Shown: positions 1,767 to 8,846 of the stretch, piece by piece | How positions within the stretch are numbered: position 1 is the stretch's first letter | How the letters are laid out: the number at the start of each line of letters is the position of its first letter | The notes under the pieces: model-generated | Databases searched by the model: none | Told to the model about the DNA's origin: nothing | Seen by the model: only the letters and a program-made list of their open reading frames with translations | Assembly: GCA_045631585.1 (NCBI GenBank) | Contig: JAZQUX010000116.1 | Span: 1 to 36,804 of the forward strand | DNA from: Eubacteriales bacterium | GTDB taxonomy: Bacteria > Bacillota > Clostridia > Oscillospirales > CAG-272 | Reading direction: 5' to 3' | Length of the DNA: 36,804 nucleotides | Translations under genes and position numbers: made by a program

Positions 1767-2057
1767 TTATTTTTCATCGATTCTGCGGAACTTTTCCATC
1801 AGCTTTTCGCGCCGCTTGGTAAATGACCGACACATGACATCTGACAGACCGCCTTCACCGAATTTCTTTTTAGCGGCATCGCACCAGCGTGCAAGCTCGT
1901 TCATGCGCGTCTGTGCATCCTGCTTGTGCATCTGCATGGTTTCCATGTCGTTTTCGTCGCGCGCGTCAATAGCGTAGTCAATATGCGATTCAGCGTCCTT
2001 GAACTCATCCTCGATGGTGTCCAGCATTTCCTCGATGACTTTGCTGTTGTGCATCAT
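1767..2057 (-). CDS. Hypothetical helical protein (accessory module gene 3)
   Basis: 96 aa ORF with an RBS (AGGAGG) at the end of the upstream gene; acidic and helical. Confidence 0.85.
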   Translation of the reverse strand: MMHNSKVIEEMLDTIEDEFKDAESHIDYAIDARDENDMETMQMHKQDAQTRMNELARWCDAAKKKFGEGGLSDVMCRSFTKRREKLMEKFRRIDEK

Positions 2058-2427: not shown

Positions 2428-3072
2428 TCAGCCGTTGCAACCACAGCCACAGCCGCAGTTGGTAACGGGATTGTAAAGCGTCTGCGCGGTCGTGGTCGTT
2501 CCGACGGTTACATCAGCGACCATCTTGGGATAAAACGTCGCATTTGCATATGTGACGATCGCATTGTCGCCACAGCAACGCGCCGCACGCTCTGCCGCGA
2601 TCTTACCCTCAAGATCACCCTTGACGCACATCAGATCATCGTGGACGCGCTCAAAGCTGTCAGCCGTACGCTGGTTGATAACCGCCTGCTCACCAAATCT
2701 GCGCTCAAATTCCATGAATCTTCCATCCATGTATTTCTGCTGTTCAAGATCCTTCTGATCTCCAAAAATGTTTGCTTTCAGCAACGCGATTTCTGCGTCT
2801 TTAGCCGCATTTTCTTTTTCCAGCGCAAATTCAGAGCGAGAGATCGGGGGTTCGACGAAACACGTCCCATGGTTGTTCAACAGCGCCGCCAGTGCAAGTG
2901 CTTCCATACCGGTACCGCCGGTGTTTCCGCCGTTTCCAAGGATACCTCCGAGCAGCCCCTGCAGACCGCCACCGTTGCCGGAAAGCGCACGCAGAAGTTC
3001 GATGCCTACCGCCGTGGAACCAAGCGCAATACCTGCATTTCCCTTTGCGTTTGCAGTTTCAATTGTTGCCAT
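2428..3072 (-). CDS. Gly-rich, coiled-coil protein with a C-terminal CGCGCGC tail (accessory module gene 1)
   Basis: 214 aa; GAGGTG RBS; N-terminal glycine-zipper-like segment; ends NCGCGCGCNG. Confidence 0.88.
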   Translation of the reverse strand: MATIETANAKGNAGIALGSTAVGIELLRALSGNGGGLQGLLGGILGNGGNTGGTGMEALALAALLNNHGTCFVEPPISRSEFALEKENAAKDAEIALLKANIFGDQKDLEQQKYMDGRFMEFERRFGEQAVINQRTADSFERVHDDLMCVKGDLEGKIAAERAARCCGDNAIVTYANATFYPKMVADVTVGTTTTAQTLYNPVTNCGCGCGCNG

Positions 3073-3131
3073 TAAATTTTCACCTCATTTTTGATAAAAT
3101 CAGTCGGTGTGCACCCCGATCTGTTGATATC

Positions 3132-3192
3132 ATTGTATCATAATAAGGCTATTTTTTACATCCACAGAAGCGGTCATTTTTTGGTCATTTTT
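3132..3192 (-). promoter_or_regulatory. Promoter of the Gly/Cys module with upstream tandem direct repeats
   Basis: Minus strand TGTAAA(3160-3155)-17bp-TACAAT(3137-3132) with TG extension; GGTCATTTTT x2 at 3172-3181 and 3183-3192 (11-bp period). Confidence 0.6.
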
Positions 3193-3235
3193 GAGCAAAA
3201 AACATAGAATTTCAAAAGAAATTTCGCAAAACCCC

Positions 3236-3264
3236 TTGACATACCACAATGATTGTGGTATAAT
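3236..3264 (+). promoter_or_regulatory. Consensus sigmaA promoter P1 with a perfect palindromic operator
   Basis: TTGACA(3236-3241)-17bp-TATAAT(3259-3264) with TG extension; ATACCACAAT-G-ATTGTGGTAT at 3241-3261. Confidence 0.9.
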
Positions 3265-3307
3265 ATATACAACAAAGGAAAACAACAAAAACAAAGGAGA
3301 TCACATC

Positions 3308-3622
3308 ATGACAAAGCAGGACGCAATTAGAGAGATCATCACCCGCGGCAACCATGCCTTCGAAGATAGTGACCTTGTGCCCGAGGTCGGCGAGATTTAC
3401 ATGCTCGAAGAGACTGCCAACACCCCCGTCAGAGTGGTCACGAGTGTTAAGGGTCACATCACTAAAAGCACATACGATTTCTTCCTCAAAGCAACCACCG
3501 GCACCGTCTATCTGTTTAAGGTCACGAAAGCAAATCAGCACAAGTACATGGACTGGGACTACAACACCGTCCGCATCCACACGCACTCCATTGACGGCGA
3601 GCTCCGCTGCATGGCTGACTAA
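3308..3622 (+). CDS. Small orphan protein, 104 aa (candidate anti-defence protein)
   Basis: AAGGAG RBS before ATG 3308; first gene after P1; function inferred from context only. Confidence 0.8.
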   Translation: MTKQDAIREIITRGNHAFEDSDLVPEVGEIYMLEETANTPVRVVTSVKGHITKSTYDFFLKATTGTVYLFKVTKANQHKYMDWDYNTVRIHTHSIDGELRCMAD

Positions 3623-3666
3623 CACATCGAGCGCGGCGGTTAACCGCGCAGAAAGGAATAAAAATC

Positions 3667-3951
3667 ATGAAATTTGGTCTTTTTACTCTGCAAAGCACCG
3701 ATCACCTTGTCCGCTGCATCGACGGCAAGCTGTCCCTGATCGACACCCCGGCATATGTCGAAGGCTCCGCAAAGAGATTCGATTCGTACGTTGACGCCCC
3801 CGAAATCCCGGCAAAGGAATCCGAGCTTGAAATCAAGCTGCGGAACCAAGGTACGCTGCTGACATCCAGCCGCTCCGTTGCCGCAGTCCTCTACGGTGTA
3901 CCGGACGACGTTGAGCTGTACACCGCCGAGGACGGAATGTGCAAGCTGTAA
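3667..3951 (+). CDS. Small acidic orphan protein, 94 aa (candidate anti-defence protein)
   Basis: AAAGGA RBS; second gene of the cassette; function inferred from context only. Confidence 0.8.
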   Translation: MKFGLFTLQSTDHLVRCIDGKLSLIDTPAYVEGSAKRFDSYVDAPEIPAKESELEIKLRNQGTLLTSSRSVAAVLYGVPDDVELYTAEDGMCKL

Positions 3952-3956
3952 ACCCA

Positions 3957-3985
3957 TTGACAATTTAATAAAACTGTGCTATAAT
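3957..3985 (+). promoter_or_regulatory. Consensus sigmaA promoter P2 for the small RNA
   Basis: TTGACA(3957-3962)-17bp-TATAAT(3980-3985) with TG at 3977-3978; expected +1 near 3992. Confidence 0.9.
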
Positions 3986-3991
3986 AACACT

Positions 3992-4020
3992 GTCAGCCGG
4001 AAACGGCTGTGGATTGAAAT
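3992..4020 (+). CRISPR. Solitary type I-C-like CRISPR repeat (not an array)
   Basis: GTCAGCCGGAAACGGCTGTGGATTGAAAT: starts GTC, forms hairpin CAGCCG-GAAA-CGGCTG and ends with the 11-nt I-C handle TGGATTGAAAT. Confidence 0.8.
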
Positions 4021-4055
4021 TATTATTTGAACATATACGGAGACGTATGGCAGAT

Positions 4056-4087
4056 AGCACAGTGATCTATGATTGCTGTGCTTTTTG
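4056..4087 (+). terminator. Intrinsic terminator of the small RNA (probably conditional)
   Basis: AGCACAGTGATC-tat-GATTGCTGTGCT (12 bp with 2 G.U pairs) followed by a T run. Confidence 0.8.
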
Positions 4088-4110
4088 CTTTTGATTGGAG
4101 GTAAAAAATC

Positions 4111-4593
4111 ATGAGAATCATCAAAATATACACCGTGAACGTTTGGAGCGCGAATCATTATCGAGACACCAACTACGAAAATTTCTACAGCCGCGCCGAC
4201 GCTTACCGATATCTGTGCGACTTCGCGCAGGGCTGGAAAGAGTATTCCGATCATGGCTACGACAGCCCTGAAATCATGGATGTCGGCTGGATTTATTGCA
4301 GCCTCGTACCGATCAATGATGGCGTGACACTCCCGGAAGATCCGTCAGAGCTGTTTTCCGATGACAACTTTAATTTGGACGACGGCAGCTTTGTATACCT
4401 TGATCTGCCACCGTACACCGACTTCTGCGTCGAGCATGAGATGCCATACGGCGGAGACAGTTGGACGCTGTATGCAGACGGTCACATCGAGCAGATGTAC
4501 CACGACGGCAGACAATCCAAAACCATGGAAAAATACATCAACGACTGGAAATCGCGTGGATGGGACGGTAAAGTCGAGGAGGTGATCCTGTGA
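4111..4593 (+). CDS. Highly acidic, aromatic-rich orphan protein, 160 aa (candidate Acr or DNA mimic)
   Basis: GGAGGT RBS; by hand count about 30 D+E versus 12 K+R; lies directly upstream of an HTH gene. Confidence 0.85.
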   Translation: MRIIKIYTVNVWSANHYRDTNYENFYSRADAYRYLCDFAQGWKEYSDHGYDSPEIMDVGWIYCSLVPINDGVTLPEDPSELFSDDNFNLDDGSFVYLDLPPYTDFCVEHEMPYGGDSWTLYADGHIEQMYHDGRQSKTMEKYINDWKSRGWDGKVEEVIL

Positions 4594-4784
4594 CCACCAT
4601 GACTTTCCGCGAGCTTCTCTCCGCCTCCGGCATGACCATCCGCCAGTTTGCCGCCTATTTCGACATCCCCGTCCGCACCGTCGAAAGTTGGAGCAGCCAA
4701 AATCCAAACGTCAAAGGCAAGTGCGCACCGTACCTCATTGATCTGCTGCACTTCAAGCTCGTCCATGACGGAATTTTGAAATAA
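4590..4784 (+). CDS. Small XRE-type HTH regulator (Aca-like)
   Basis: FRELLSASGMTIRQFAAYFDIPVRTVESW HTH pattern; GTGA overlap with the upstream gene (alternative ATG at 4599). Confidence 0.85.
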   Translation: MTTMTFRELLSASGMTIRQFAAYFDIPVRTVESWSSQNPNVKGKCAPYLIDLLHFKLVHDGILK

Positions 4785-4818
4785 AAAAACGCACGGCATC
4801 AAAACCGTGCGTCTTTTT
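4783..4818. terminator. Bidirectional intrinsic terminator
   Basis: A run, ACGCACGG-catcaaaa-CCGTGCGT, then a T run; lies between convergent genes. Confidence 0.85.
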
Positions 4819-4850
4819 ATGCATTTTTTAACTTGCCGGCAACTTGCAGA

Positions 4851-5129
4851 CTATGTGTAGTCCACCATATCCGCAAGCAGCTTGGGATCGAGCTTTGCCC
4901 ACGCATATTGCAGTCTGCGCAATCCCTCTCCCCTGTGCCTCGACACAAACTTCGGCGACCGCTCAAGCTCCTCTGCAAGCTCCTCATTGGTTTTGCCGTC
5001 GACGATGCACCCGATCACACAGCGCATCTCATCGCGCGACAGAGATACATAAGACAGCGCAAGCACTCTCAGCGGTGCATACGGTGTCCTCAAAGCCCGA
5101 ACAACGATTTCCTTATCAAGGGGGATCAT
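4851..5129 (-). CDS. Sigma-70 region-4/LuxR-like HTH protein
   Basis: LSRDEMRCVIGCIVDGKTNEELAEELERSPKFVSRHRGEGLRRL; RBS GAAAGGA before ATG 5129. Confidence 0.75.
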   Translation of the reverse strand: MIPLDKEIVVRALRTPYAPLRVLALSYVSLSRDEMRCVIGCIVDGKTNEELAEELERSPKFVSRHRGEGLRRLQYAWAKLDPKLLADMVDYT

Positions 5130-5283
5130 GTTTCCGTTCCTTTCTTTTCGCCGTGATCGCAAGGATCGCTGCCGCCGATAAAATAGCAATCGCGGCAGAC
5201 TGGATGCGCACGGCACCTCGCAGTCGTTTGATATCACGTGCGGCAATGATCACCGCGCGTGCGTATTTGTCATCGTTCGTCAT
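5116..5283 (-). CDS. Small membrane protein, 55 aa (not in the ORF track)
   Basis: GGAGG RBS; MTNDDKYARAVIIAARDIKRLRGAVRIQSAAIAILSAAAILAITAKRKERKHDPP. Confidence 0.6.
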   Translation of the reverse strand: MTNDDKYARAVIIAARDIKRLRGAVRIQSAAIAILSAAAILAITAKRKERKHDPP

Positions 5284-5340
5284 GGCTTCAACCTCCGTGT
5301 TACCGATTCCTGCGCTCGTTTGCGTGACGTTTCACATCCA

Positions 5341-6204
5341 TCATCCTTCTTTCAGCGCGGCAATGAGCCGCTTTCCGATCTCATCTGCCGCATCATCGAC
5401 CGCTTTGTCATAGATGCGCTTCGCAAAAACACACATCTGCTCGACCGTCACCGTGCCATGCAGACCGAGATCCCCGTTGCTGTCGCCGACGATGATCTTG
5501 TTGTCCTTCGCCCACTTGACAGCCTCTTTCGCCCACTCAGACGGCGTGTTGTCCCGTTTCGCAGTCTCAACCGTTTCGGATTTCGGCGGTTCTTCGACCT
5601 TAATGTCGCAAATCATGTAGTTTGCGTCGGGCTTTCCTGTGATACCGTCAACCGCTTCCGTACCCCACTGCCATACGCGCAGATTCGGGTATTTGTCGGC
5701 GGTCGGTACATTTGCTTTGTTGCGCCACAGAGCCAGCCACAAGTCCCAATGCGATATATTGCCGAGCTTGTTTGTCAGCCAGTCGAGATTGGTGTATACC
5801 ATCGGTTTGTATCCCTCTGCATCAACGCGCGAGCAGAAGGTGTTGACGATCTGCGCCATGAGCGTTTTGTCCTTTGGCGATCTGCTGTCCTCGACATCAA
5901 CCGCCGCCCACAGATCAATGATGGAGCGATACGGCGCGATGACGGACAGGAAGTATTCCGCTTCCTGCATCGCTTCGCTCACGTTCCACGCTGTCAGATA
6001 GTGGTACACGCCGATGCGGATGCCCCAGCGATTCGCGTTTACAATGTTCTGCGCAAATTTGCTGTCCTCAAAGTTCCGCAGGGAGGCGTTTGATACAGAC
6101 CGCCCCTGTGTTGCCTTGATAAAAGCAAAGTCGATACCGTCCGCCTTGACCTGTGCCCAGTTGATATCACCCTGATAGGTCGATACGTCAATACCGCGCT
6201 TCAT
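5341..6204 (-). CDS. Endolysin, GH25 muramidase with a C-terminal SLH-like domain
   Basis: GIDVSTYQG, FAFIKATQG, GVYHY, AVDVE, VWQW motifs; C-terminal WAKEAVKWA...IIVGD...VTVEQM. Confidence 0.93.
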   Translation of the reverse strand: MKRGIDVSTYQGDINWAQVKADGIDFAFIKATQGRSVSNASLRNFEDSKFAQNIVNANRWGIRIGVYHYLTAWNVSEAMQEAEYFLSVIAPYRSIIDLWAAVDVEDSRSPKDKTLMAQIVNTFCSRVDAEGYKPMVYTNLDWLTNKLGNISHWDLWLALWRNKANVPTADKYPNLRVWQWGTEAVDGITGKPDANYMICDIKVEEPPKSETVETAKRDNTPSEWAKEAVKWAKDNKIIVGDSNGDLGLHGTVTVEQMCVFAKRIYDKAVDDAADEIGKRLIAALKEG

Positions 6205-6488
6205 ACCAGCAGTTCCTCCGCTTTTTCGTGCGGGATGCACTGATTCTCAAATTTCTTGTATGCATCGAGATAAAATTCCTGCTTATCACCGTTATAGGTG
6301 ATTTCGTAGTACATACCATCGTGGAGAGAAGTGGAGACAAGAGCCTTATGATTCTGCAAAGTCTTGCACATCCATACGATATACACGTCGTATGCCGGAA
6401 TTGGTCTGTCCGTTTTATCGGTATGCTCTCTGACATATTCCTTTACAAGTTCTTTGCATAGCGTTGCAAACATTTCATTTCCCATCAT
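6201..6488 (-). CDS. Conserved phage protein (DUF6275-like)
   Basis: VYIVWMCKTLQNHKALVST...DGMYYEITYNGDKQEFYLDAYKKFEN motif, recognised from memory. Confidence 0.75.
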   Translation of the reverse strand: MMGNEMFATLCKELVKEYVREHTDKTDRPIPAYDVYIVWMCKTLQNHKALVSTSLHDGMYYEITYNGDKQEFYLDAYKKFENQCIPHEKAEELLV

Positions 6489-6985
6489 TCTGCTCTACCT
6501 CCACTCTCTTCGTTTTCGTCATCTTCTATTTCGCCCGGAACCTTCGCTTCGTCCGCACGGCTTTGCAGCACCTCAATCGCGCGGATGATGATTTTCGGCA
6601 GCGGGATGCCCATCAGACCCGCGTTCTCGACGATTGAGAAAAGTTCGTTTACCATAAAACCGATCACGACGGTATCGCGGATGCAGTGCATTGCAATCTC
6701 AATTCCCGCCGTCTCCATCAGCGCAAGATCAAGCCTGTGCGCGATCAAAACAAACAGCAGGGTAAAGCACTTTTTCACAAGACCCTTCCATCCCGCGCGG
6801 CTCTCGAACGCTCCCGACGCGGATTTGTTTGACTTGTGAAATACACACGCAACGACGATGCCGGAAATATAGTCGATTGCCATGAATATCACGAGCGTCG
6901 TCATACCGGCAGACCAGCCGCCTAAGATTGTGGACACCATGCCGCCAATTAAGGCGGCGAAGGTGCTGATGTAGTTTTTGATCAT
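6485..6985 (-). CDS. Holin (toxin secretion/phage lysis holin family)
   Basis: Multiple TM segments; LGGW...IDYISG...GWKGLVKK...NELFSIVENAGLMGIPLP. Confidence 0.93.
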   Translation of the reverse strand: MIKNYISTFAALIGGMVSTILGGWSAGMTTLVIFMAIDYISGIVVACVFHKSNKSASGAFESRAGWKGLVKKCFTLLFVLIAHRLDLALMETAGIEIAMHCIRDTVVIGFMVNELFSIVENAGLMGIPLPKIIIRAIEVLQSRADEAKVPGEIEDDENEESGGRAE

Positions 6986-7022: not shown

Positions 7023-8846
7023 TTACTCATTCATGGTTTCATTGTGTGCCTGTCTCACCGCGAAATCCACGCCGTCGCCTTGCTCTGCAACCGCGAACGT
7101 CGCGCCGTCCGCCGCATAATTCTGCGAAAATACCATGTCGGTTTTGGCGTAAATTTCGTTCTTGCTACCCTTGAACGTATTGAGCCATACGCGGCTGTTC
7201 TGTACCTCGTCTCCGATGTAAAGCCGTGTTTCATCAAATTCGTTGTTGTGGATGACAAGCCCGTCCGCACCTGTCGCCATGACCGTACCGCCGCCGCTGA
7301 ATTTGCAGTTTCGGAGTATATGCCCTTTGTTGTGGTTTCTGCCGTCTTCCCAGTCGATATGCGACGCTGGATCACGGAAACCGTTATTATGGAATATACA
7401 GTCAGAAATCAGCCAGTTTTCCCCGGCGTTCGGCTGAATCGCTGTTGCGTTGCTATCTTCCATACGGCAGTTTTTTATGTAACAGTTCACGGGCGTACCA
7501 TAAGAATAGATGTGCGCAATTCCGTTGAAATCTGGATCGGCGGATGTCGGTGCAGTGCCTTGATGGAATTTGATTCTCGCGTATACGGCGTTTGTCGGTT
7601 TCTTGTACTGATAATACTGTATACAATTTTCAAGGCATGACAGAAAATTCTTTTGTGCATTATAGAAATAGATACTGTACACACGGGCAGAAAGGTAAAG
7701 ATAACCCTGAAATCCCTGCATGTTACCAAACCCGAAACGGTCACCGATTTTTGAAATATCCATGTATCCGTTATTTCGGAACGCATAGGACTCCGCTTGA
7801 TCCTGTCCGTTCTTGTCAATGCCGCCGACCTCAACCGCTGACAGCTTGAACGGTACACGTTGCATATTATTCCATGCCGCCCCGATGTTGAATCCGGGCG
7901 ATTTGCTTATTGTGCAATTGTACAGCCCGGAACGGTAGTTATAACCACCGAAAAACACAGATTGACAGCCATACGCCCCGGTGTAATCTATCATGTCACC
8001 CTCGGCATAAATCACCGCGTTTTCAATGCGGCTGTATTCCGTATCGGTAAACAGGAACATCTGATACCCTGTTTGCGTCAATGCAGATTCGACGATCTGG
8101 ATGACAGAACCGGAAAAATCAAGAATCATATGCGACGGCATTGTAAACGTCCCGTATGCCGGGGAAACTTCATAAATGCCCTCCGGGAAGATGATTTTTT
8201 TCTTTCCGCTTCCGACCGCCGCCGCGATAATGTCAATAATCGCAAGTGTCGTCGATTCTACGTCTGTCCAGTCGTAATCATCCGCATTCACGGTCATGAT
8301 ATCGTCATCGGAATATGCAAGCGCGATTTCTTCCACGACAGACACGACAAACGATTTTCTGACCGTTCCTGTGATATCTGCCGCCGTGATGGTCGCCGTT
8401 CCCGGTGATATGCCGATCAGAACGCCGTTTTTCACGCGGCATACAGATGGATTATCACTTGTAAACGATACAATGTTATCGTCATAATACGAATACGCCC
8501 ACGGATGATCGTCTGTCATTTCTGACAAGATATAGGCTTGCGCTGAAAATTCTTCTCCGACTTCTATCACGTCCGGTGCTCTTGCGAGTGTGATATCTGC
8601 CGCCGTTCGTGCGGATGTCAACCCGTAATCAATCGGCGATACTGTAATATCATGTGATGCAGTCACCGTCTTTCCCTGCGCCTTTGCCGACACTTCAACC
8701 GTTGTTGTTCCGTCTGAAATCGCCGTGATGGTTTCGCCGTCTGCTGTCACAATGCCGTCATTCGCGGATGCGATCTGCACGTTATGCACTTCGACGACCC
8801 CCGGCTGTACTGTTTTAACAAGGGCGGCTTCGTCGCCTACTTCCAT
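7023..8846 (-). CDS. Tail-associated protein: two Ig-like (Big_2) domains plus a right-handed beta-helix (candidate depolymerase)
   Basis: FTSDNPSVCRVKNGVLIGISPGTATITA Big_2 motif; IIFPEGIYEV and repeated I.NC motifs typical of pectate-lyase-like folds. Confidence 0.75.
   Translation of the reverse strand: MEVGDEAALVKTVQPGVVEVHNVQIASANDGIVTADGETITAISDGTTTVEVSAKAQGKTVTASHDITVSPIDYGLTSARTAADITLARAPDVIEVGEEFSAQAYILSEMTDDHPWAYSYYDDNIVSFTSDNPSVCRVKNGVLIGISPGTATITAADITGTVRKSFVVSVVEEIALAYSDDDIMTVNADDYDWTDVESTTLAIIDIIAAAVGSGKKKIIFPEGIYEVSPAYGTFTMPSHMILDFSGSVIQIVESALTQTGYQMFLFTDTEYSRIENAVIYAEGDMIDYTGAYGCQSVFFGGYNYRSGLYNCTISKSPGFNIGAAWNNMQRVPFKLSAVEVGGIDKNGQDQAESYAFRNNGYMDISKIGDRFGFGNMQGFQGYLYLSARVYSIYFYNAQKNFLSCLENCIQYYQYKKPTNAVYARIKFHQGTAPTSADPDFNGIAHIYSYGTPVNCYIKNCRMEDSNATAIQPNAGENWLISDCIFHNNGFRDPASHIDWEDGRNHNKGHILRNCKFSGGGTVMATGADGLVIHNNEFDETRLYIGDEVQNSRVWLNTFKGSKNEIYAKTDMVFSQNYAADGATFAVAEQGDGVDFAVRQAHNETMNE

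Follow-up and report, generated by a model that had tools for sequence, protein, structure and literature searches.

Classical acr-aca operons (Aca1, Aca2) and the Listeria prophage loci of AcrIIA1 pair a strong promoter that contains an inverted repeat with a gene for a small helix-turn-helix (HTH) protein at the end of the operon, and virus-borne mini-CRISPR arrays carry full spacers against rival viruses. To our knowledge, few anti-CRISPRs (Acrs) have been described from phages of anaerobic Bacillota. RNA inhibitors have joined the protein ones: Camara-Wilpert et al. (2023, PMC10651486) describe Racrs, solitary CRISPR repeats on phages that lie just downstream of promoters and are clustered with acr genes, and place acrIC5-racrIC1 of a Bifidobacterium pseudocatenulatum prophage in a bicistronic arrangement read as a single transcript. 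Viral CRISPR RNA (crRNA)-like "Cracr" RNAs, type I-C ones and two-unit arrays included, silence cas genes and often accompany Acr proteins, according to Liu et al. (bioRxiv 10.1101/2024.10.29.618823). Here we describe a cassette at positions 3236-4818, on the plus strand, of a 36,804-nucleotide (nt) stretch of DNA from a Eubacteriales bacterium (contig JAZQUX010000116.1 of assembly GCA_045631585.1; hereafter the window), which holds three small open reading frames (ORFs), a solitary repeat-like RNA gene and a terminal HTH gene.

As far as its sequence can tell, this cassette is probably a type I-C anti-CRISPR locus of a temperate phage, in which an RNA and probable protein inhibitors are combined with a repressor of itself that resembles the anti-CRISPR-associated (Aca) proteins. 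That the locus acts against CRISPR-Cas at all seems to us equally probable. It is best read as belonging to known kinds, namely the acr-aca operons and the Racr and Cracr RNAs, and not as a new kind. The window is an entire contig (C116) of an assembly of 2.48 Mb in 339 contigs, estimated to be 78% complete, and its content reads as a temperate phage.

The type I-C repeat-like RNA and its relatives

The RNA gene begins with psiR, a degenerate solitary type I-C CRISPR repeat at 3992-4020 on the plus strand (GTCAGCCG-GAAA-CGGCTG-TGGATTGAAAT), which consists of a 6-bp hairpin with a GAAA loop followed by the exact 11-nt handle TGGATTGAAAT. It starts 6 nt past the -10 element of P2, a second consensus promoter (3957-3985, plus strand) with 12/12 hexamer matches and a 17-nt spacer. 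Downstream lie psiS, a spacer-like stretch (4021-4055, plus strand) whose first ~16-18 nt are predicted to be unpaired and which contains a small GNRA hairpin at 4035-4048, and T1, an intrinsic terminator (4056-4092, plus strand) with a 12-pair stem and 3-nt loop at 4056-4082 and then a T run. An RNA of about 100 nt, made up of psiR, psiS and the terminator, is predicted from P2. In the predicted fold of the 101 nt from 3992 to 4092 (-38.7 kcal/mol, z -6.2) the repeat hairpin comes first, the handle and the next 16 nt stay unpaired, and the GNRA hairpin and the terminator follow; 0/200 shuffles were as stable. T1 would end this small RNA and may serve as an attenuator ahead of ORF3 and the HTH gene.

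A covariance model (R1) was built from 14 distinct canonical I-C repeats, with the window excluded, and was run against the window. It matched 3992-4020 over its full length with 29.5 bits (E 9.6e-5), compared with 10.5 bits for the next match and 45-53 bits for canonical repeats. Within the same bacterial family 26/301 genomes have arrays, all of them outside the genus of the window; 17 flanking nt of 3992-4020 are identical to the array repeats, which share GTC...GTGGATTGAAAT with it and run from GTC through one strand of a 7-8-bp stem, the loop and the complementary strand to GTGGATTGAAAT. A type I-C system matching the unit would have a repeat that ends in GTGTGGATTGAAAT. We assign the family arrays to type I-C because Cas8c/Csd1 adjoins the array in 5/5 array-bearing genomes tested. 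The unit at 3992-4020 is the sole repeat match above 11 bits in the 36.8-kb contig, where it is intergenic and on a phage, and the assembly lacks Cas1 and Csd1. The RNA is likely to be a functional I-C crRNA-like RNA, and in design it seems closer to a copied host RNA of the crRNA-like, cas-regulating sort than to a bare repeat.

Two host loci provide the models for that comparison. In L176, a locus of a Bacillota metagenome-assembled genome (MAG) that was located by a search with the 3' half of the window RNA unit, cas3 is accompanied (about 6400-6700, reverse orientation) by a TATAAT box, followed after 7 nt by a repeat-like unit and then by a spacer-like stretch and a terminator. Its repeat-like unit is identical to psiR over the first 6 and last 17 nt, and its spacer-like stretch matches a TTC-flanked site just upstream of cas3 at 15/15 scored positions of its initial 18 nt, with each sixth position excluded from the scoring. 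A unit of the same type lies between cas3 and cas5 in L111 (about 7250-7450 of G296:C14), a genome of the window's own family, and its spacer-like stretch has a 14-position match to a TTC-flanked site ~95 nt upstream of cas5 in which only the sixth positions differ. With R1 the two RNAs score 25.7 and 26.3 bits, in the same class as the window RNA and far under canonical repeats. Judged by their position and their matches, which cover the initial 16-18 nt of the spacer-like parts, both units are cas autoregulators of the CreR type.

Repeat-like elements also recur near relatives of the cassette. R1 was used to scan 19 loci, 18 with an HTH relative and one (L001) with an ORF2 relative. I-C elements were present in 4/18 of the related loci, as canonical repeats in L036 (three) and L038 (six) and as one degenerate unit each in L037 (30 bits) and L030 (27.8 bits); in a control of 100 unrelated loci (732,743 bases, default filters) nothing scored above 16 bits. 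By this measure cassette relatives are strongly enriched for I-C repeat elements. In both L030 (2850-3010, minus strand) and L037 (2540-2677, minus strand) the unit lies just past the HTH gene on the opposite strand, with a promoter-like box, a repeat-like hairpin, the handle, a spacer-like stretch and a terminator in that order. The two units differ by compensating stem changes, and the first 19 spacer-like bases differ at one position. Since these starts are nearly identical, the two RNAs probably share a target, which was not found.

The repeats of L036 (973-1140, plus strand) and L038 (1684-2051, minus strand) form canonical arrays a few kb from HTH-family cassettes, on contigs without cas genes, and are either phage-borne mini-arrays or host arrays beside an integration site. 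On viral contig L120 (10334-10640, plus strand) a gene for a 51-amino-acid ribbon-helix-helix (RHH) protein is followed by a promoter-like site and an I-C repeat-like RNA (34.3 bits); this protein shares 64-65% identity with the RHH domain that the ORF2 relatives P0040 and P0038 carry as a fusion. Another viral contig, L117, has three successive repeat-like matches at 1135-1363 on the plus strand (22.9, 19.7 and 14.1 bits), possibly a multi-unit crRNA-like array.

Variants of the cassette itself were sought among the contigs of four metagenomic DNA runs, compared with 3100-4900 at 80% likeness; these are mixed communities and report presence only. The P1 region is common to many contigs (45 at 3242 in X2), with differing continuations behind 3265-3271. 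One contig, with 44 nt on its shorter side, has 10 nt in place of ORF1. Another, with 83 nt on its shorter side, jumps back from 4039 to 4004 through an insertion of 33 nt; the inserted nt begin a second repeat-like unit, and the arrangement is a tandem two-unit array. A joint from 3241 to 4108 (P1 to ORF3) was also seen in contigs and is not relied on, having only 26 letters on one side.

The putative regulator, its predicted operator and the cargo proteins

P1, the first promoter of the cassette (3236-3264, plus strand), has a sigma-70 consensus with an extended -10: TTGACA, a 17-nt spacer and TATAAT, with 12/12 hexamer matches. In the promoter scan TG precedes the -10 of both P1 and P2, and the two promoters are 70% identical across 37 nt. 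The spacer of P1 is filled by a palindrome of 21 bp, ATACCACAAT-G-ATTGTGGTAT (3241-3261), a perfect 10+1+10 inverted repeat that overlaps the -35 by its final base and the -10 by its first three bases. It is single-copy in the window, and 0/100 shuffles had any match at three or fewer mismatches. This palindrome is the predicted operator of the HTH protein. An inverted repeat was sought in P2 and none was found. The half-site likeness between P1 and P2 (TGTGGTAT, TGTGCTAT) was considered as a second operator and dropped: P2 lacks an inverted repeat, and the likeness fits the TRTG -16 element, a promoter feature of Gram-positive bacteria.

The HTH gene (4590-4784, plus strand; 64 amino acids, with an alternative ATG start at 4599) overlaps ORF3 in the sequence GTGA, and each of the four ORFs has a Shine-Dalgarno-like sequence 5-10 nt before it. 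Against named families (Pfam, PHROGs, NCBIfam) nothing scored above cut-off, the matches being weak and generic (HTH_23, E 0.0055; phrog_8898, E 1.3e-4); a profile of the protein run against all PDB chains found 3mlf (E 5e-5), 2ppx and similar structures. The close homologues form seven clusters, and a GTDB-wide scan with their alignment found nothing. At E≤0.01, 34/301 family genomes had a match, mostly over the helix-turn-helix only. Full-length homologues with 35-45% identity were obtained at 17 loci, all confirmed by tblastn and drawn from family genomes (3), viral loci (3/7) and metagenome loci (11/64). The number of independent loci is smaller than 17 because L034, L035 and L024 are near-identical, L037 is related to L038 and L030 is related to L036.

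A common pattern runs through these loci. In 11/17 the HTH gene directly follows a small acidic ORF (isoelectric point (pI) 4.2-5.4) of unrelated sequence, and an acidic domain is fused to the HTH in a further two; L003, L004, L032 and L038 are the exceptions (4/17). Many have recombinase-like or lysis-like neighbours, as judged by eye from the translations. L029 has an ORF3 homologue (32% identity) directly before an HTH homologue (43% identity). Palindromes lie in the promoter spacers of several cassettes: 21 bp in identical register in the window, L005 and L022, and 17 bp in L034, L035, L024 and L039. The half-sites vary between loci, as do the HTH proteins. Palindromes that hold the same register and have locus-specific half-sites are the comparative signature of an autorepressor, and we consider it very likely that the HTH protein, as predicted, autoregulates P1.

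Two side observations concern these relatives. In L029 two consensus promoters face each other (1730-1870) before the genes of the ORF3 and HTH homologues; the minus-strand one has a terminator within ~70 nt, and a second small RNA, unlike an I-C repeat, may be made there. In L024, L035 and L039, which represent one phage lineage, a 335-amino-acid ORF that looks by eye like a reverse transcriptase adjoins the cassette on its upstream side.

The cargo consists of ORF1 (3308-3622, plus strand; 104 amino acids, AAAGGAG ribosome-binding site), ORF2 (3667-3951, plus strand; 94 amino acids, acidic, with a conserved YGVPDDVELY motif) and ORF3 (4111-4593, plus strand; 160 amino acids, strongly acidic with a pI of 4.3 and a net charge of -18), which are mutually unrelated in sequence. 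Like the HTH protein, all three represent genuine, narrow families. Homologues of ORF1 fall into 17 clusters with 59-90% identity, none with a Pfam domain, and those of ORF3 into four. The search with ORF2 at E≤0.001 gave 16 proteins, one identical to the query; 13 relatives entered the alignment (A4), from which the identical protein and two very long partial matches were left out. Four of the 13 carry a fused C-terminal HTH_3 or RHH domain (HTH_3 above cut-off in two, RHH_5 above cut-off in one and just below in one), and effector-regulator fusions of this type are known among anti-CRISPRs. The two long proteins, P0031 (1988 amino acids) and P0041 (3802 amino acids), match the C-terminal motif region of ORF2 once and six times, respectively. 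ORF2 is the strongest Acr candidate of the three, with ORF1 and ORF3 as anti-defence candidates. The chance that at least one of the three is an Acr falls, in our estimate, a little below even.

Much of this layout had been set out in a preliminary description of the same DNA, which saw a self-contained cassette opposing the late genes, with a consensus promoter, three unrelated small ORFs, a terminal HTH gene and a terminator; every one of these elements was found where it had been placed. The perfect 21-bp palindrome in the promoter was borne out as well (3241-3261, unique in the window), and the embedded RNA mimic that it proposed can now be given as a solitary I-C repeat with a promoter of its own (P2, 12/12; R1, 29.5 bits); for the mimic, P2 and T1 the description had listed no coordinates. 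It also read the whole as an acr-aca-type layout. The comparison of HTH loci supports that reading, the guilt-by-association check revealing a recurring HTH gene behind variable small acidic genes and palindromes in the same promoter register. As to its naming the HTH protein an Aca, family context and palindromes agree with the name, and no match to a described Aca family was found.

The cassette is flanked by lysis genes on the minus strand and by a serine recombinase gene (174-1748) with Resolvase, Recombinase and Zn-ribbon domains. The minus-strand genes include a GH25 lysin (5341-6240), a holin (6485-6985) and big tail-like ORFs. A gene for a 131-amino-acid LuxR-like protein (4851-5246, minus strand; LuxR/GerE-type HTH, PF00196, E 3.9e-5) converges with the cassette, and the cassette terminator T2 (4789-4822, plus strand) is common to both. 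T2 has an 8-pair stem with six GC pairs at 4789-4812, then a T run, and is bidirectional in appearance, with 16-nt arms at 4781-4796 and 4805-4820. Adjoining the recombinase is a 96-amino-acid helical ORF (1767-2057, minus strand) with a sub-cut-off match to the Cas5fv helical domain (PF20158, E 7e-4, 20.2 bits versus a cut-off of 25) that may be chance. A blastn search of the cassette against 50,697 phage records gave zero matches. IMG/VR held no close relatives of the HTH protein, ORF3 or ORF1 and a single distant one of ORF2; this locus, L001, is the early region of a lytic-looking phage and is uninformative on the cassette.

Proposed mode of action and rival explanations

In the anti-CRISPR reading that we favour, P1 would fire on infection and express ORF1 and ORF2; these two and ORF3 would be the variable cargo of the cassette and most likely serve as Acrs or act against another defence. 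The P1 transcript would extend through the RNA gene and, with presumed read-through of T1, into ORF3 and the HTH gene. The HTH protein would then bind the 21-bp palindrome filling the P1 spacer and shut P1; we infer this binding because four independent loci have a palindrome in the same place. P2, free of an operator, would make the ~100-nt RNA that starts at the degenerate I-C repeat. Cas5c would cut this RNA after the hairpin, and the 11-nt handle plus the 16-18 unpaired nt of psiS would be loaded into Cascade. In a Cracr-type outcome the complex would be guided to a partly complementary, TTC-flanked site in a host cas promoter and cas would be silenced; in a Racr-type outcome the RNA would merely soak up Cas proteins. 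We favour the Cracr-type outcome, in which the RNA would act on a cas promoter as host CreR-like RNAs of identical design appear to do.

A more elaborate version of this reading, to which we give little credence, has the operon sense CRISPR-Cas through three layers: Acr proteins of new fold, a CreR-mimicking RNA and RNA-gated Aca feedback. In the P1 transcript the I-C mimic separates the candidate acr genes from the aca gene, and it would be cut by Cas5c, or loaded into Cascade, only where an active I-C system is present. Cleavage would sever the aca message from P1, lower the repressor and keep P1 open, and the freed RNA fragment would guide Cascade to shut the host cas promoter. If true, the locus would tune itself to the presence of the defence that it attacks.

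Several results weigh against the anti-CRISPR reading. At the level of the RNA, Rfam scans at 2900-5300 and 3940-4120 returned nothing, and the CRISPR-DR models did not report 3992-4020 at E≤10; this blank is weak evidence because CRISPR-DR21 gives the family's canonical repeats only 27-30 bits against a gathering score of 48. The four I-C-bearing related loci are two pairs of related elements and so do not represent four independent events. A psiS target beside cas genes was not found in five I-C loci of the family. The 14-base psiS pattern had six matches in 401 family genomes, with a similar result for the reversed control, and the 18-base pattern had 95 chance-like matches in GTDB species genomes. 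A search for the handle plus the psiS start found no host or viral RNA that shares them with the window. The match by which Cracrs are defined, at least nine protospacer-adjacent motif (PAM)-proximal bases to a CreA/R spacer or to a cas or toxin promoter, was not found for psiS, and the true host may be unsampled. Nor did any of 135 distinct I-C spacers from 19 loci match the window over its full length. The sequencing-run search returned only DNA runs (shares of at most 0.14) and no RNA run with the locus. Cas1 and Csd1 were each found in 0/13 genomes of the binned genus, the MAG included, which neither the anti-CRISPR reading nor the mini-CRISPR explanation below accounts for, and no CRISPR array was found in the MAG, which is 78% complete. 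The contig is purely phage and the host assignment therefore comes from binning alone.

At the level of the proteins, ORF1-3 had no match in Pfam, PHROGs, PADLOC or NCBIfam at E≤0.01. They have no relative among PDB chains by sequence, and none of the PDB chains matched by the HTH protein is named Aca or anti-CRISPR-associated, no dedicated Aca library having been searched. AlphaFold2 models and Foldseek searches were made for ORF2 and ORF3. The ORF2 model (predicted local distance difference test (pLDDT) 94.5) had no neighbour at E≤0.001 in the PDB (best E 0.47, template modelling (TM) score 0.34) or in BFVD (best E 0.038, TM 0.43), and as modelled ORF2 shows a new fold. For ORF3 no neighbour was found either (best E 0.59), a result that says little because the model is poor (pLDDT only 65.5). 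AcrIF9 appeared in these searches at rank 14 (E 1.6), which is not meaningful. The ESM Atlas, queried for ORF3 and ORF1, gave best scores of 0.81 and no family. The proposed check against known Acr families, by profile and by the structures of the ORF2 and ORF3 models, therefore produced no sequence or fold match.

One rival explanation takes the RNA for a phage-borne mini-CRISPR guide, which would not disable CRISPR but would exclude superinfecting phages, or regulate, by aiming a host I-C Cascade at competing phages or at a gene of phage or host, with the proteins as unrelated moron cargo. The unit is indeed crRNA-like, having a repeat, a spacer-length stretch and a 3' hairpin; relatives carry real short arrays (three repeats in L036, six in L038), and one metagenome contig has a tandem second unit. 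There is also a TTC-flanked 17/18 match to psiS, the best among Clostridia, in Ruminococcus and Eubacteriales MAGs (L212, ~1814; L228, ~1714), inside a 153-amino-acid ORF of a prophage-like replication module. Chance can account for this match, given that 596 billion bases were scanned and that several of the 95 matches are equally good in unrelated phyla, and its complementarity would end after 18 nt, which fits binding and not cleavage. The nearest matches in design are the host cas autoregulators of L176 and L111, and we regard a mini-CRISPR guide as unlikely. Two further psiS matches were set aside as chance-level: one of 12 nt with a TGT flank in the phage early region (window 33087, minus strand), and a TTC followed by 10 matching nt on MAG contig C231 (~12819, minus strand), where a chromosomal gene with a consensus promoter has its 5' leader.

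It is also improbable, in our view, that the locus is an ordinary autoregulated moron cassette, whose HTH protein is a plain repressor of accessory genes (for lysogenic conversion or blocking another defence, for example) and whose repeat-like sequence is a decayed, non-functional relic of a host array or creR. The lack of cas genes in the host genus (0/13) would suit such a relic, as would the failure to find a psiS target in the loci and genomes searched, the stem of psiR, shorter than in canonical repeats and missed by the Rfam models, and the place between lysis genes and integrase, the usual moron site. Against decay, neither the handle nor the 6-bp stem of the unit has a flaw, a 12/12 promoter ends 6 nt before it and its terminator is in place; L030 and L037 have equivalent units, in which the stem changes are compensatory and psiS is conserved, and in a relative the unit is duplicated in tandem. 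We give still less weight, amounting to a very remote chance, to ORF3 and the HTH gene being a toxin-antitoxin-like or regulator-partner pair with the remainder incidental. Their GTGA overlap and the predicted palindromic operator would fit such a pair, as would its conservation in L029 (32% and 43% identity, respectively) and the weak Xre-antitoxin-like matches of the HTH protein (PF20432, E 0.044; HigA2, E 0.84). Yet ORF3 is very acidic (pI 4.3) and has no toxin family match in Pfam, PADLOC or NCBIfam, the HTH protein has no extra domain, and the operator lies 1.3 kb upstream, before ORF1; in 15/17 other loci the HTH is behind unrelated genes or fused to other domains.

The three protein families are candidate inhibitors of type I-C or other defences, and the cassette offers a putative new Aca-like repressor family with a predicted, readable operator code. 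Its RNA is a probable copy, carried by a phage of anaerobic Bacillota, of an RNA with which hosts regulate cas, and CreR-like autoregulators with TTC-flanked promoter targets exist in the I-C loci of this bacterial family. Searching with the HTH family and the repeat-like RNA together is a practical way to mine for more anti-defence cargo: more than 10 unrelated small acidic proteins already lie in the cassettes found.

Comparison with known systems

Like the virus-borne mini-CRISPR arrays, the window has a phage repeat unit without cas genes just downstream of a promoter. It differs from them in that only ~18 nt of psiS are free and that no viral target stands out.

In both the cassette and acrIC5-racrIC1, a solitary I-C repeat RNA shares one operon with a small acr gene (here a candidate) on a prophage, with a promoter directly upstream. 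A promoter within 250 bp upstream is expected of a Racr, and the -10 of P2 ends 6 nt before psiR. In the Bifidobacterium pair RNA and protein act on the same system. The window RNA differs in having its own second promoter, a terminator and a spacer-like part of defined length, and in its place between candidate acr genes and a regulator; its companion proteins are unrelated to known families, their function being predicted from sequence.

Against the Cracr and CreR RNAs, the point of divergence is the defining match of at least nine PAM-proximal bases, which was sought for psiS and not found. The design is otherwise alike: a degenerate repeat, a short spacer-like part and a terminator, in the order and spacing of L176, L111, L030, L037 and L120. 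Two-unit arrays among the Cracrs have their counterpart in the tandem-unit relative of the window RNA on a metagenome contig, and the window RNA too is encoded together with Acr candidates.

From the classical acr-aca operons the cassette is set apart by an HTH protein with no detectable relation to solved Aca proteins and by a palindrome that fills the whole promoter spacer. It shares with them the HTH gene at the operon end, the inverted repeat in a strong promoter and the variable small acidic genes upstream, and with these operons and the AcrIIA1 loci alike the site between the lysis genes and the prophage end and the fusion of effector and HTH domains.

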